Origin: a virus
Lineage: Duplodnaviria > Heunggongvirae > Uroviricota > Caudoviricetes
Length of the DNA: 15,479 nt
Reading direction: 5' to 3' (one strand)
Virus record (IMG/VR): IMGVR_UViG_2695420487_000018
The position numbers and the translations under genes were made by a program. Below the pieces are notes generated by a model. The model saw nothing but the letters and a program-made list of their open reading frames with translations, was not told the origin of the DNA and ran no database searches. Shown one piece after another: positions 8,112-13,706 of this stretch (position 1 is the stretch's first letter; every line of letters starts with the position of its first letter).

Positions 8112-8522
8112 TCAGAACGGAATATCATCACCGTAAGGGTCATCGCCTTCCGCTGGTGGCTGATTACCCTGTGTGCCTGTGGTCTTGCGTCTGTTCCCGC
8201 CAGGACGTGCCGCACGGGCACTGATTACGCTGTCTGCAATAACCTGATACCCCCGCCGCGTTTCCCCGTTCTGTCCGGTCCACTGGCTTACCTGCATCGT
8301 GCCGGATACGCTGGCAACATCGCCTTTTTGATGTTTAGCCAGGAAATCGGCCTGTTTGCCAAATGCGATAACCGATAACCATAACGTCGCCTGTCCGTCA
8401 TGTGCCTGGCTGCATGGCAGCGATACCGCCATACGCGCCAGCGTCATCGGTGTTCCCTTGCTGGTCTGTTTTACCTGCGGGTCGTCCACCAGCCGCCCGT
8501 AAGCCGCTATCTGTGCTGTCAT
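8112..8522 (-). CDS. ssb: Single-stranded DNA-binding protein
   Basis: 136-aa ORF; OB-fold-like N-terminal region, Gly/Pro/Gln-rich linker, acidic C-terminal tail ending DDIPF (SSB signature); ATGA overlap with the upstream gene. Confidence 0.85.
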   Translation of the reverse strand: MTAQIAAYGRLVDDPQVKQTSKGTPMTLARMAVSLPCSQAHDGQATLWLSVIAFGKQADFLAKHQKGDVASVSGTMQVSQWTGQNGETRRGYQVIADSVISARAARPGGNRRKTTGTQGNQPPAEGDDPYGDDIPF

Positions 8523-9142: not shown

Positions 9143-11275
9143 TTAATCTTCATCATCAGGCTGGAACATCAGCACGTAAAAAACATGCTGCTTACCCCCA
9201 ATCTTGCCCAGCGCCTTTTTTTTGTATCGGCGATCGCTTCCCTTCTCCAGCATTCCGGCAGCATCCAGGGCACGCGCAAAATGCGCCGGATTAAATCCCT
9301 TCGCTATCTCACTCTCAAACACGTGCGGGAACGTGTAATAGCGCATCTCGTCATCTTCGTTGCGAATGCTCCCTTTTCTGTATCCGGCAAGCTCTTTAAT
9401 CGGTAAATCACGCTCATCTGTATTGGGGTACGGAAGGTAGCGGCTAAACCCAAACGACGACAAAAACGCCTCAGCCTGTTCAACCATCTGTTTAAATTCC
9501 CTGTTACCTGTGCCGAACTCCTTCACCCAGGCATTAAAGTTATGCTGTATCGCGTCGCGGCATTCCTGCACGACCCAGCCAGTTACATGACCGGAAAGCA
9601 CAAGCGCGGCCTCCAGTATGGCGAAACGTTCACCCACGCGGTGGACCTGCTCGCCGTAACTCTCCGGTATCAGGTTGCGCCACCGTTCGCGGCATTCCCT
9701 TACCGTGTCCTTTGCCTCCTGCTGGTGGCCTGCCAGCCATTTAACCCACTCACGACCCGCCGCCCCGTGATTTGCTGTCCAGGCATCCTTTAACGCGTCA
9801 GCATGTTCCTTACCGTTGCTGTATTCGTGAAATTTCGTGGCTTTTTCCATCGGAACGTTAAGCAGTCGGACAAGCTGCCCCGCCTTAACTTTTATCCCCT
9901 CACTTTTGAGGAATGTCTCAACGTCCATTTCTCCGGTGCTGATTGCCACCGTTCGCCAGTGTTTGATCTCCCTGTTGCCGCCATCCTTCGCCCCCTGCAA
10001 TTTCCCTGAACCGTTAAACAGCGTATAAGCAGACGTTGACACTTCCCGCGCATTTCCGGCCTGGCCTATCTCATCCAGTGGTAAAAGCCCGTCATTATGG
10101 GCCTCGGCCTCATTGGCAATACCTAACGCCGTGCCGTACCAGGTCAGCCGCTGCGCGTCCGGCTCTCCCCATAAACTTGATGCGATGTTCTGCGTGGTGG
10201 TCTTACCTGCCGATGACTGTTCGAAAAGATGCACCCCGAAGCCGTCAGCACCCACAAGGCCAATTAAAGGCGCTGCCAGTGACGTTGCCACACCCAGTAT
10301 CATTGAGGCATTACCGCCAGCCAGCCGCGCCACGCTGTCGCGCCAGCCATCCGCCGTGCCCGCCACGGAATAACCGTTAATCGCGGCGCTTTTTCCGGTA
10401 AACAGGATCGGTTTTTCAGATTCACCAATGATCGAACCGTCCGGCATGATGTACGCGCCAAAATGCCAGCCCGTTGTTGTGCTTAACTGCCATTCCTCAT
10501 GGCTTCCGCTTAACTGCATCCAGTCCGCCAGGATTGCCCTGTATTTGCCGTTGGTTGTCACGTTCAGCCCGTGATCTTTAAGTAACCGCCAGCCGTCACG
10601 GTCGCCGATACCACCACACGGGATCGCCATTGTGATGACTTTATGGTTTGCGGTTTTTTTCCAGCGCATCACGCGGTAATGCTCTTTACCGATCGTCCCC
10701 GTTCCCAGTAGTTCAAGCGGAGAACATAACCACGTCTCAGGCCGGATAATTTCGCCTGACTGCTTATCCACTTTGGGCGTTACCCAGAAAACACCATCGG
10801 CGCGACTTTCAACGCGTGGCTTTAATTCGTCATCGCTATGGCTTCCGGTATCTTTTTTCTTTACCGGAAACTCAATAACCAGACCATCAGAAAGATTCTG
10901 CCGCTCACGGGCCAGATATTCGCGCCAGTTCTCCACCTTCTGACCGTGCATTCCTTCGGGGTAAAAATTTGCGTCCTGAATATCTGCCGCCGCCAGCTTC
11001 TGACCAATCTTTTTGGTCTCCACCAAATCCAGTTCTCCGGCCTGGTACAGCCTTACGCGTTTTTTTCCATCCGGAACAATTTTCAGCGCATCAAGTTCGG
11101 CAAGCTGATTTGGCCCAAGCCACACAGGCGGAACATTATCGCCGGATGCGGGGCCATCCTGCTCCTGCCATTGTTTCGCGTGCGACCAGGCATCACTACC
11201 CGCGAAAATAATTACCTCTGTGTCTTTGTGTTTTATTCCGCGTGGCTGTTTTTTTACGTTCGGTGCCAGTTTCAT
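9143..11275 (-). CDS. Replication initiator, primase/helicase-type (P-loop NTPase; DUF927/D5-like family suspected)
   Basis: 710-aa ORF; Walker A-like FEQSSAGKTT; position immediately upstream of the iterons matches pri-rep genes of satellites. Confidence 0.8.
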   Translation of the reverse strand: MKLAPNVKKQPRGIKHKDTEVIIFAGSDAWSHAKQWQEQDGPASGDNVPPVWLGPNQLAELDALKIVPDGKKRVRLYQAGELDLVETKKIGQKLAAADIQDANFYPEGMHGQKVENWREYLARERQNLSDGLVIEFPVKKKDTGSHSDDELKPRVESRADGVFWVTPKVDKQSGEIIRPETWLCSPLELLGTGTIGKEHYRVMRWKKTANHKVITMAIPCGGIGDRDGWRLLKDHGLNVTTNGKYRAILADWMQLSGSHEEWQLSTTTGWHFGAYIMPDGSIIGESEKPILFTGKSAAINGYSVAGTADGWRDSVARLAGGNASMILGVATSLAAPLIGLVGADGFGVHLFEQSSAGKTTTQNIASSLWGEPDAQRLTWYGTALGIANEAEAHNDGLLPLDEIGQAGNAREVSTSAYTLFNGSGKLQGAKDGGNREIKHWRTVAISTGEMDVETFLKSEGIKVKAGQLVRLLNVPMEKATKFHEYSNGKEHADALKDAWTANHGAAGREWVKWLAGHQQEAKDTVRECRERWRNLIPESYGEQVHRVGERFAILEAALVLSGHVTGWVVQECRDAIQHNFNAWVKEFGTGNREFKQMVEQAEAFLSSFGFSRYLPYPNTDERDLPIKELAGYRKGSIRNEDDEMRYYTFPHVFESEIAKGFNPAHFARALDAAGMLEKGSDRRYKKKALGKIGGKQHVFYVLMFQPDDED

Positions 11276-11571
11276 TTCTTACCCCTGAATACGTTAAGCA
11301 TCTTTTTTATTTCCTGAATATTGGCGCGTGCTTTCTCCCTGCTGGTTGGTTTACTGCGGGGCGCTGCCTGTACCAGAGAAAAATCACGCCGGAACTGATA
11401 AACAGGCATCACGCAATCATATTCGTAGCCTTCACGATGGTAGGTTACGCGCCGTTCCTCCACGCCCTTAATCATTACCGTGCCGCCGTACTGGTCGCGG
11501 TAAATATCCCCGCGCATGAATTTAGTGCGAGTTTTGCCGCTGTCAGTTAAGCCAGGATATTTAAGTTTCAT
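11272..11571 (-). CDS. Hypothetical protein (99 aa)
   Basis: ORF ends overlapping the rep start; GGGGA upstream of the ATG. Confidence 0.55.
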   Translation of the reverse strand: MKLKYPGLTDSGKTRTKFMRGDIYRDQYGGTVMIKGVEERRVTYHREGYEYDCVMPVYQFRRDFSLVQAAPRSKPTSREKARANIQEIKKMLNVFRGKK

Positions 11572-11840: not shown

Positions 11841-12000
11841 TTAACCACAGCGCAACACTTCCTGACAGTTTTGCCAGAAGGCCAGCTAATGCGGATATAT
11901 CACCATCATTTAATTTATCAGGGTATACCTCAAGAAGGCGGCAAATAATTTCTGTCTGGTGCGCACGTTCAGCGGCTTCGTGTAATGTAATTTCCTTCAT
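11809..12000 (-). CDS. Hypothetical small protein (63 aa), AT-rich gene
   Basis: ATG at 12000 overlaps the upstream gene stop (TAATG). Confidence 0.5.
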   Translation of the reverse strand: MKEITLHEAAERAHQTEIICRLLEVYPDKLNDGDISALAGLLAKLSGSVALWLIDERAERYEK

Positions 12001-12185
12001 TAATGCACCTCTTTTAATTCATACACTGCTGAAATAATGACTTGTGATAAGCCATATTCTGATGATTCGCTTCTCACCGCAGCAATAGCCGTCTGAACAT
12101 TAACAGCCTTCACATTCTGAGCGATACCAATTGTGTGGCCTAGTGGGTTAACAGCGCTGGCAAATACACGGAAGGTTTTAAGCAC
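12000..12185 (-). CDS. Hypothetical small protein (about 62 aa)
   Basis: Track ORF 12000..12215 begins at TTG; the GTG at 12185 has AGGGGG 7 nt upstream and overlaps the upstream stop. Confidence 0.4.
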   Translation of the reverse strand: MLKTFRVFASAVNPLGHTIGIAQNVKAVNVQTAIAAVRSESSEYGLSQVIISAVYELKEVH

Positions 12186-12642
12186 GGCACACCCCCTGAC
12201 GAATACGGGCGACAAAAATCAGATGTGCGTGCGGCAGCTGGGCGCGGGCTTCGCGTTCAGTGGCTGCGGTAACGGTGTAAATATCAATGCTGCTGTGGTG
12301 GCACTGCATAAAGCGCCAGACAAAGTAAGGGCGTGCGGATACAGCCATGTGAAAGGCTCCCAGATGAATTTTAAGGAGTCTCGCTACTACGCTGCTAAAC
12401 ATGGTGGCGAGACGTAACAGGGTTAGCAGACTGGTCATCTGGAAACCAGCGAGCACAAAGGCTCCCCCGTTACGCCCCGCCATAATGCGGGTATGGGTAG
12501 GTTTACGGACACAAAAAAACCGCTTATCGGATGTGGGCGGCTGTCCGCCAGATGTATTCAGGCTGCTAAACCCGGTCGCCATGTGGGCGACGGGGGAAGC
12601 ATACAGCCCCGTGATAATTTTTTGCAAGCGGTTTTTACGCAT
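12178..12642 (-). CDS. Hypothetical protein; C-terminal about 55 aa paralogous to the 12635..12907 product
   Basis: Track ORF 12178..12684; ATG at 12642. C-terminal motifs FVWRF, TEREAR, ARIRQG are shared with the upstream gene, with third-position differences (GTC/GTG, CGC/CGT). Confidence 0.45.
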   Translation of the reverse strand: MRKNRLQKIITGLYASPVAHMATGFSSLNTSGGQPPTSDKRFFCVRKPTHTRIMAGRNGGAFVLAGFQMTSLLTLLRLATMFSSVVARLLKIHLGAFHMAVSARPYFVWRFMQCHHSSIDIYTVTAATEREARAQLPHAHLIFVARIRQGVCRA

Positions 12643-12907
12643 GATGTGACCCCTGACGAATACGGGCGGCAAATACAGCAACACAACCTGACGGGCAACG
12701 GCTACGCGCTTCGCGTTCCGTCCAGGCGGTTACGTGGATGATTTGAGATTCTCCGGCACTCAGTGCCAGAAAACGCCACACAAAGGCCGTTTGTGTGTGT
12801 ACAAGGTGTGGTATATGATTTACAGCAACCATAACGGCTCCTAGTTTACGTTGTTGGTTAGAAGCCCTGCGAGTGGTAACGACACTTGCGGGGCTTTGTC
12901 TTTTCAT
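12635..12907 (-). CDS. Hypothetical small protein (65-90 aa), first gene of the leftward operon; paralog of the next gene's C-terminal domain
   Basis: ATG at 12907 (AAGG upstream) or 12832 (AGGAG 5 nt upstream); same conserved motifs as the downstream paralog. Confidence 0.5.
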   Translation of the reverse strand: MKRQSPASVVTTRRASNQQRKLGAVMVAVNHIPHLVHTQTAFVWRFLALSAGESQIIHVTAWTEREARSRCPSGCVAVFAARIRQGSHHA

Positions 12908-12923
12908 CGATTACCTTGATAAA

Positions 12924-13006
12924 GGTGTCAGCCACTATATTAGTAACGGGTGTCAGCCACGTCAATAGTGTTTTTCCGTTTTCTTGTGTGTATACTGTCA
13001 GCCACC
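12924..13006. promoter_or_regulatory. Divergent promoter/operator region: leftward promoter TTGACG-N17-TAATAT (minus strand), rightward -10 TATACT, and three direct repeats TGTCAGCCAC
   Basis: Minus-strand -35 is rc of 12960-12965 and -10 is rc of 12937-12942 with a 17-nt spacer. Repeats at 12926-12935, 12951-12960 and 12996-13005 overlap promoter elements on both strands. Confidence 0.6.
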
Positions 13007-13026
13007 TAATAACGAGGAAATCAGAT

Positions 13027-13206
13027 ATGGCAACAAAAGCAGTTAATGCAAAATCCAAAAAGCTTGAGGCTCGAGTACCACACGCAATAGCTGATGCTGT
13101 AGAAAATTTAAAGGAAGATGGCGAAAGTACAGGGCAATTTATCGTTTCGGCACTTGAAGGCGAGATCAAACGCCGCCAGCGCCGCAAGGCCAAAGAATCA
13201 GAATAA
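13027..13206 (+). CDS. Small DNA-binding protein, ribbon-helix-helix-like (59 aa); candidate regulator of the switch
   Basis: GAGGA 8 nt upstream of the ATG; pattern KKLEARVPHAIADAVENLKEDGESTGQFIVSALEGEI fits a beta-strand plus two helices; basic C-terminal tail. Confidence 0.55.
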   Translation: MATKAVNAKSKKLEARVPHAIADAVENLKEDGESTGQFIVSALEGEIKRRQRRKAKESE

Positions 13207-13248
13207 TCACTATCAGCGCCGTGGTGTGAGGTATTACGGCGCATTGCT

Positions 13249-13437
13249 ATGCAGGACAACACAATGACCGATAAAGAATTGACCAAAACATTATCACCGG
13301 CACGGAAAAGACGGCGCAGAAAGATAGAGCATGAATCAGAAAGATTCGCACCATGTGCTTTTGCCCTTGAGCAATTCCTTAAAGAGTACAGGGAAAAGCG
13401 CTCATTGCAGGTATGGCAACGAACTGAACCAGACTGA
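13249..13437 (+). CDS. Possible small basic protein (62 aa)
   Basis: ORF between the RHH-like gene and the plus-strand terminator; no convincing SD. Confidence 0.25.
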   Translation: MQDNTMTDKELTKTLSPARKRRRRKIEHESERFAPCAFALEQFLKEYREKRSLQVWQRTEPD

Positions 13438-13532
13438 TTGCATTGCCCACCAGCCTGATAGCGGCTATCATCCCCGTGCTTATGTTTGGGATCACACACA
13501 CAAACGGCGCAGCGGGTTATCTGTTCAGAAAG

Positions 13533-13560
13533 GCGGCTCCATTTCGGGGCCGCTTTTTTT
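13533..13560 (+). terminator. Rho-independent terminator of the rightward unit
   Basis: GCGGCTCC-ATTTC-GGGGCCGC (8-bp stem with one G-U) followed by TTTTTTT. Confidence 0.7.
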
Positions 13561-13706
13561 ATACCTGAAAAACCCCAATTTTGTTGTTTTTCAGTTTCAC
13601 CAGGGCGAACGAATCCCCGCCCACGTTCTGGCGTATATTCAATCTTCATGGTTATAGCTCTGTGTTCAGATGATTGATGTGTGGCGGCTGCGTGCCGCCA
13701 GCGTGA

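Follow-up and report, generated by a model that had tools for sequence, protein, structure and literature searches.

The window, by which we mean the whole 15,479-nt stretch of DNA analysed here, encodes an integrase, AlpA, a YlcI/YnfO-family protein, a C4/Icd module, a DUF4222 protein, a DUF927 helicase and an SSB, together with packaging and capsid functions (capsid, protease, portal, head-completion protein, HNH, TerS and TerL; all by Pfam). The gene set of a capsid-forming PICI is present in about 15 kb, and from these genes the element appears to be an EcCIEDL933-type phage satellite that forms capsids (cf-PICI). The minus strand encodes every gene of the region, including two adjacent open reading frames (ORFs) at 12635-12907 (90 aa) and 12178-12684 (168 aa). 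Listed in minus-strand order, the features are as follows.

12635..12832, minus strand: icd-like gene 1, 65 aa from ATG 12832, with Shine-Dalgarno AGGAG at 12842-12838; NF033153
12650..12668, unstranded: 19-nt exact repeat, copy 1, with ARIRQG codons plus a ribosome site that serves the overlapping start of the next gene
12178..12642, minus strand: long eta-like open frame, 154 aa from its first ATG, starting within the icd-like 1 stop region (ATGCGTAA) and ending as icd-like 2
12598..12627, minus strand: putative internal constitutive promoter, with -35 TTGCAA at 12627-12622, an 18-nt spacer and -10 TATGCT at 12603-12598
12555..12604, minus strand: leader structure with the a1 site (c4-a1b1 motif, Rfam RF03163), a1 core UUUAGCAG at 12570-12563, aligned with P1 a1
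12548..12555, minus strand: b1 target site, ACAUCUGG, complementary to the C4 loop (repeats D15, I2)
12513..12548, minus strand: hairpins and U7 tract (terminator-like), between b1 and C4
12400..12487, minus strand: C4 antisense RNA gene (Rfam RF01695), with b' loop UUUCCAGAUGA and a' single strand CUGCUAA
12392..12399, minus strand: a2 target site, UUUAGCAG, complementary to C4 a' (repeats I10, D4), aligned with the annotated P1 a2
12357..12367, minus strand: b2 target site, UCAUCUGGGAG, covering the Shine-Dalgarno GGGAG (12361-12357) of icd-like 2 (repeat I6)
12178..12348, minus strand: icd-like gene 2, short form, 56 aa, with its ATG aligned with the P1 icd ATG; NF033153
12193..12211, unstranded: 19-nt exact repeat, copy 2, the other end of 457 bp absent from O157:H7 islands
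12000..12185, minus strand: first downstream gene, 61 aa, with a GTG start that overlaps the icd-like 2 stop (GTGCTTAA); phrog_3672, E=9e-46

The C-terminal ~50 aa of the two ORFs are homologous (47% identity over 51 aa, E=3e-12, BLASTP), as a sequence-only reading of this DNA had recognised in describing two adjacent genes that end in related domains of about 55 aa. That reading had suggested a profile search, and both ORFs match NCBIfam NF033153 (phage_ICD_like, “host cell division inhibitor Icd-like protein”) at 64.7 bits for copy 1 and 55.2 bits for copy 2, above the curated cut-off of 25 bits. The family, which it had left unnamed, is that of P1 Icd (52.6 bits) and of P4 Kil, the C-terminal part of P4 ORF137 (73.9 bits); P4 Kil and icd-like 2 gave no BLASTP alignment, and their kinship is visible only via the NF033153 profile. 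The true start of icd-like 1 is likely ATG 12832, which has AGGAG upstream and which is the start annotated in its 198-nt RefSeq homologues. At both gene ends the next ORF begins 8 nt before the stop, in another frame, with the stop/start overlaps ATGCGTAA at 12642-12635 and GTGCTTAA at 12185-12178. The second of these joins the icd-like 2 stop to the GTG of the first downstream gene, so that this gene, whose RefSeq homologue is annotated as 186 nt, is probably translationally coupled to icd-like 2. Replication genes follow (DUF4222 gene at 11272-11571 and DUF927 helicase gene at 9143-11275, Pfam).

The sequence-only reading had also held that the DNA of the two copies differs mainly at third codon positions, which is not the case: identity at codon positions 1, 2 and 3 is 32/57, 37/57 and 29/57. 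Selection on the protein, which it had read from that pattern, is nonetheless supported for the ~55-aa Icd-like domains, since icd-like 2 orthologues from 30 satellite cassettes have 21, 16 and 34 variable columns at the three codon positions (p=0.024; a smaller set was also analysed). For the N-terminal extension, the 98 codons that precede the icd ATG (the first ATG being at 12642), it is not supported: codon periodicity is absent in the same 30 cassettes, with 37, 39 and 37 variable columns (p=0.95), and the amino acids appear not to be under selection.

The extension of about 100 aa, reported earlier as part of the second protein, does exist as an open frame of 98 codons, but what it holds is a C4 RNA gene with its targets and not a protein domain. 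The C4 gene matches Rfam RF01695 over its full length (1-87) at 72.7 bits, against a gathering score of 45, and is the only Rfam match at gathering score in the whole window; across 14 sequences, compensatory changes occur in 15 of the 26 predicted C4 pairs. A permissive Rfam search places the c4-a1b1 motif (RF03163) at 45.5 bits (E=4.7e-10), just below its gathering score of 46.7, and returns a sub-threshold isrK-type match (36.8 bits) that spans the hairpin and U7 tract. This terminator-like hairpin and U-run (12513-12548) is kept in all relatives. The Shine-Dalgarno GGGAG of icd-like 2 sits inside b2, and icd-like 2 is the first translated gene after the C4-family RNA. The same does not apply to icd-like 1 in this window, in which a single C4 match leaves it with no C4 gene upstream; its ribosome site was considered as a C4 target and rejected. 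The arrangement suggests that C4 regulates icd-like 2, which would correspond to kil of P4, and the second gene would then be, at minimum, a 56-aa icd homologue under predicted C4 control.

The pairing of C4 with its targets is conserved while its sequence changes. The b' loop, which is the loop of C4 hairpin 2, varies in step with b1 and b2 across 11 aligned loci from E. coli and P1/P7, giving nine specificities, of which the following are examples; the remaining loci obey the same rule.

Window: b1 CAUCUGG; b' loop CCAGAUG; b2 CAUCUGGGAG
L001: b1 UUUGG; b' loop CCAAAG; b2 CUUUGGGAG
L003 and L011: b1 UACAG; b' loop CUGUAG; b2 CUACAGGAG
P1: b1 UAGUG; b' loop CACUAA; b2 UUAGUGAGG
P7: b1 UUGUG; b' loop CACAAU; b2 AUUGUGAGG

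A scan of IMG/VR added further loop variants with a matching b2 in each, for a total of ~19 variants that co-vary with both b sites (13 in satellites and 6 in P1-like phages). The matrix of loop-target duplex energies is diagonal: for the window, the cognate b2 duplex reaches -14.5 kcal/mol against -8.1 or weaker for non-cognate pairs, and the cognate b1 duplex -10.6 kcal/mol against -5.6 or weaker. Pairing of the a2-b2 region with accessible C4 (-29.0 kcal/mol) was reached by none of 300 shuffled sequences, and that of the a1-b1 region (-27.2 kcal/mol) by one of 300. By these comparative criteria the C4 RNA and its targets are probably functional.

Between the eta-like ATG and a1 lies the putative internal promoter, whose -10 falls on TATAGT, the -10 of P1c4/P51b, a promoter annotated in P1; it matches the consensus at 8 of 12 positions and was not called by a consensus promoter scan. 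Further upstream, a promoter-like site at 12965-12937 is a single match where 0.9 are expected by chance. An 11-nt inverted repeat (12626-12636 and 12515-12525), considered as a possible antiterminator, is kept in the tandem-type cassettes and shows no compensatory change.

The module is colinear with the record of phage P1, which annotates a1, b1, c4, a2, b2, icd and ant. The order a1, b1, c4, a2, b2, icd is that of the immI regions of P1 and P7, which have been characterised by experiment, and BLAST against phages matches 12390-12579 to the c4 region of P1, of P7 and of their relatives with 75-79% identity at the DNA level. Window and phages share one RNA family and one fold, b2 lies over the icd ribosome site in both, the a sites of P7 are identical to those of the window, and icd overlaps the start of the next gene in the phages as well (icd/ant1 in P1). 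The differences lie in the b'/b1/b2 specificity (CCAGAUG / CAUCUGG in the window), in the downstream operon, which consists of satellite replication genes here and of the antirepressor Ant in P1/P7, in the extra upstream icd-like gene, present here and missing from the phages, and in the long frame, which runs open through the RNA gene in the window but in P1/P7 meets a TAG that interrupts it between a2 and b2. A disrupted frame in homologues had been named in the earlier reading as an outcome that would favour a conserved DNA or RNA element. For the extension, interrupted in this way and devoid of periodicity, an RNA element is indeed favoured; the Icd domain, by comparison, keeps both its frame and its periodicity.

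The layout of the long ORF is closer to that of P4. P4 ORF137, still labelled “cI gene product” in its record, embeds the CI RNA (Rfam C4, 74.9 bits, 8420-8507) and has Kil as its C-terminal part; it shares 8 nt (GTGCGTAA) with the gene that follows, as in the window, and its gene end (GGAGGTGTCCCGTGCGTAA) likewise places a ribosome site before the overlapping start. P4 has a constitutive promoter inside the long ORF, as the window may have, and P4 too is a satellite, in which the switch controls the replication operon, the layout that we propose for the window. In its passages on P4, a 2023 survey (PMC10111431, summarising Forti et al. 1999, J Bacteriol 181:5225) describes immunity through the CI RNA with seqA/seqC and the nested genes eta and kil. 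According to the same passages, translation of full-length Eta requires transcripts from an upstream promoter and is coupled to the preceding gene (PMC10111431), and it prevents termination (PMC10111431). The two systems differ in that the window RNA is of the P1 c4 subtype with an a1b1-type leader and the P4 RNA has an isrK/seqA-type leader, and in that the long ORF is coupled to an icd-like gene in the window but to an alpA homologue in P4. Transcription termination is the main read-out in P4; for the window we only infer it.

We conclude that the region very probably heads and regulates the early (replication) operon of a cf-PICI, as an antisense-RNA switch of the P1 immI / P4 immunity type. 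On the minus strand its modules run from icd-like 1 through the putative promoter, a1/b1, the terminator-like hairpin, C4, a2/b2 and icd-like 2 into the coupled genes that lead to the DUF927 helicase gene. By analogy with P1, C4 would be processed from the leader transcript in the quiescent island and pair with a2/b2; the pairing would block translation of icd-like 2, and polarity would silence the replication genes. On the precedent of P4 eta/kil, transcripts from an upstream, induction-dependent promoter would give translation of icd-like 1, after which ribosomes may re-initiate at the overlapping ATG 12642 and read through the RNA gene and its targets, making expression insensitive to C4. 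If read-through translation overrides C4 in this manner, selection would keep the frame open and leave its amino acids unconstrained.

The frame itself, which traverses a1/b1, C4 and a2/b2, can be read in other ways. It runs open from ATG 12642, 30 of 31 satellite cassettes (IMG/VR and E. coli loci) keep it open, and in relatives RefSeq calls a 153-175-aa “Icd-like protein” across the RNA gene, all of which would suit a pair of paralogous protein genes, the second with a functional N-terminal protein domain of ~100 aa. We consider this highly improbable, given the high-scoring C4 gene and targets within the extension and the even spread of its variable columns over codon positions. The extension (12349-12642) has no protein-family match in Pfam (E up to 10), NCBIfam or PHROGs, and the sequence upstream of a1 is unrelated between tandem-type cassettes and those of the L007 type; in P1/P7, moreover, the interrupted frame is followed by an icd that starts at the aligned ATG. 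It is also unlikely, in our view, that the long frame is never translated and owes its openness to chance or simply to conservation of the RNA; the 56-aa icd-like 2 would then be the sole product, exactly as in P1, and the long RefSeq coding sequence an artefact. Such a reading would agree with the lack of codon periodicity, with P1 and P7, which work without such a frame, and with one locus (L012) that has a +1 frameshift in the extension, right after C4; the satellite cassettes are related, so their 30 open frames are non-independent observations, and openness could stem in part from RNA-level conservation and shared ancestry. Against it, the 268 nt before the icd ATG contain no in-phase stop in any of 23 distinct IMG/VR satellite-type cassettes, whereas the other two frames of the same 268 nt have 5-9 and 1-7 stops, and the frame stays open across cassettes down to ~75% identity with 13 different loops. 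In P1-like phage cassettes it is open in only 2 of ~50. In the window and in L007, +1 and -1 indels occur in pairs, so that the frame is regained, and the first ATG always lies 98 codons upstream, in an ATGNNTAA where it overlaps the icd-like gene before it (one subtype has no icd gene upstream, and there the distance is 118 codons). P4 supplies an experimental precedent with the same layout. The open satellite frame would seem to fit a translated-through ORF such as P4 eta rather than a functional protein domain. The long frame may work like eta, but its N-terminal part is no sequence homologue of Eta: similarity to Pfam Phage_ASH (PF10554), at which P4 ORF137 scores 59.7 bits, is absent from the extension even at E up to 10.

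The 15-bp repeat that the earlier reading had placed at the 3′ end of each copy is real, and the next gene does start there in another frame. TGACGAATACGGGCG is found at both ends, the exact match extends to 19 nt (CCCCTGACGAATACGGGCG), a length reached by none of 200 shuffles, and it is embedded in a longer repeat of 41 nt, whose copies are 78% identical and spaced 457 nt apart. An exact 19 nt amid ~55% DNA identity, located precisely at the junctions of a 457-bp difference from O157:H7 islands, might indicate a nucleic-acid site that functions in its own right, as a C4 target or as a site of protein binding or recombination. We judge this improbable. Duplex energies of the repeat with C4 are no better than those of shuffled sequence, and it was rejected as a C4 target; in other loci the two gene ends diverge at synonymous sites, with a longest common word of 10-15 nt. 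Its content is explained by ARIRQG codons and a GGGG/GGAGG site 6-7 nt before the overlapping start. Every icd-like gene, those of P4 (GGAGGTGTCCCGTGCGTAA) and P1 (icd/ant1 junction) included, ends with a G-rich ribosome site, which the overlapping next start follows after a few bases, and in the satellite islands ARIR(Q/R) codons directly precede that site. In view of this shared gene-end design, the repeat is the conserved junction for translational coupling. It is in addition a recombination point, but not an independent element.

As a recombination point, the 19-nt repeat acts as a homology patch for the loss or gain of C4-icd cassettes. Islands of E. coli O157:H7 are 99.8% identical to the window, minus exactly the 457 bp between the repeat copies, which comprise the putative promoter, a1/b1, C4, a2/b2 and the greater part of icd-like 2. 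These islands, of the EcCIEDL933 type, retain one hybrid icd-like gene and no C4; EcCIEDL933 itself has flanks 99.8% identical to those of the window and shares its integrase, alpA, DUF927 and capsid/packaging genes. At the other end, L003 is longer than the window by ~300-360 bp; this insert lies between duplicate copies of a 58-nt 5′ part of icd and contains an isrK/seqA-type leader and a second C4. Among 12 tandem-type IMG/VR loci, six have two C4 genes ~478 nt apart and six have one, like the window, and copy 1 has its own C4 in L003, in L009 and in those six IMG/VR loci. Each of the tandem icd-like genes is thus the protein-coding component of one immunity module in a stack, and here the first module is represented only by its protein gene.

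Taken together, these observations allow a broader proposal, which we put forward tentatively as a possibility: satellites have placed a P1-type c4 cassette in a P4-style translated-through frame that is ATGNNTAA-coupled to an extra icd-like gene. Its openness would be selected and its amino acids would not, ribosomes from an induction-dependent promoter would override the RNA, and icd-like genes would offer their conserved ends, 5′ as well as 3′, as recombination patches at which cassettes are stacked, swapped or deleted, leaving islands with 0, 1 or 2 C4 genes and at least 13 satellite loop specificities. If so, stacking, swapping and deletion of cassettes would diversify immunity between satellites.

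EcCIEDL933 is a capsid-forming PICI of E. coli O157:H7 whose induction needs AlpA (bioRxiv 10.1101/2022.09.08.507074). Islands of its type are inducible and transferable, and the same report makes no mention of icd or of an antisense RNA (bioRxiv 10.1101/2022.09.08.507074). Since these islands lack the cassette and yet are induced and transferred, the module is dispensable for the satellite life cycle. Some cf-PICIs, then, have an antisense-RNA immunity layer of the P1/P4 type that the studied prototype EcCIEDL933 is without, and such a layer may affect satellite induction or exclusion between related satellites. We used E. coli genomes and IMG/VR for comparison: at least 80% of the cassette is found in 119 of 5,426 complete E. 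coli genomes, and an Icd-alignment scan of species-representative genomes, too narrow a set for this purpose, returned one locus, on an island of Shigella flexneri that has just one icd-like gene. In its part on such profiles, the 2023 survey reports that C4 and isrK profiles match several Gram-negative PICIs (PMC10111431).

The feature is a member of the known C4/Icd class (P1 immI and P4 CI-eta/kil), already covered by Rfam and NCBIfam, and the general picture of these systems is unchanged; what the sequence-only reading had observed is confirmed in part, and its interpretation partly supported. Beyond earlier descriptions, our analysis makes three modest additions: the open, unselected frame of the satellites as compared with P1-like phages, the coupling of this frame to an extra upstream icd-like gene, and the gain and loss of cassettes at icd gene ends, including their absence from the prototype cf-PICI. 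A frame kept open with no selection on its amino acids provides a clean signature for regulatory, translated-through ORFs of the eta type. As for annotation, the labels “Ash family protein” and “transcriptional repressor” on related ORFs derive from the old P4 “cI protein” ORF.

Comparison of six relative loci (L001, L003, L007 and L011-L013) with window 9143-11275 showed that the replication gene 3′ of the conserved icd/C4 head varies among them, being a DUF927 helicase, a member of the DNA primase family, a RepA-family helicase or a toprim protein, and that the small genes between the head and the replication gene also vary. Therefore, the icd/C4 regulatory head is common to satellites that are otherwise mosaic. 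The EcCIEDL933-type islands (L002, E. coli O157:H7) are 99.8% identical to the window, but at the place of window 12193-12668 they are without the 457-bp C4-icd cassette, and the gene following icd begins with ATG (ATGCTTAA) in these islands and with GTG in the window.

Protein annotations have been placed on open reading frames (ORFs) that traverse a C4/CI RNA gene: the Pfam label Phage_ASH (PF10554), the RefSeq pseudogenes named "ash family protein" and, likewise, the PHROG label "transcriptional repressor". ORFs carrying such labels are:

8168-8584 in L014 (phage P4)
3673-3921 in L003, a relative locus
796-1347 in L009, a relative locus

These labels derive from the old P4 ORF described as "cI gene product (AA 1-137)", and the Phage_ASH, ash and repressor annotations are thus in part a description of a translated RNA gene.

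The head and its upstream flank contain the following features:

12515-12525 and 12626-12636, arms of a perfect 11-nt inverted repeat
12861-12897, plus strand, strong terminator-like hairpin of 15 pairs followed by a T-run
12925-13006, intergenic stretch separating the icd operon from the YlcI/YnfO-family gene
12965-12937, minus strand, consensus promoter-like site TTGACG-17-TAATAT, the sole such site of the region
12858-13649, minus strand, 263-aa ORF overlapping the YlcI/YnfO-family gene
13028-13206, plus strand, YlcI/YnfO-family gene

In RNA, the inverted-repeat arm at 12626-12636 (AAAAACCGCUU) adjoins the eta-like start, and the one at 12515-12525 (AAGCGGUUUUU) makes up the 3′ side of the terminator-like hairpin preceding C4. 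The repeat is kept at 10-11 of 11 positions across all tandem-type loci, with no compensatory change seen, and is absent from the non-tandem type and from P1-like phages. Because the upstream arm AAAAACCGCUU would be expected solely on transcripts of the upstream promoter, it could act as an antiterminator.

The sequence (G/C)TGTCAGCCAC occurs three times in direct orientation (at 12925, 12950 and 12996). The promoter-like site is situated among these copies, which could be operators of the upstream promoter for AlpA or another regulator. The plus-strand hairpin overlaps the start region in front of icd-like 1, and its palindrome, when read from the minus strand, falls within the 5′ leader of that gene.

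Annotation of these two overlapping reading frames differs among RefSeq records: in L001, the long minus-strand counterpart of the 263-aa ORF is annotated as a hypothetical protein, whereas other records annotate the plus-strand YlcI/YnfO gene and carry the minus-strand ORF as a partial pseudogene.
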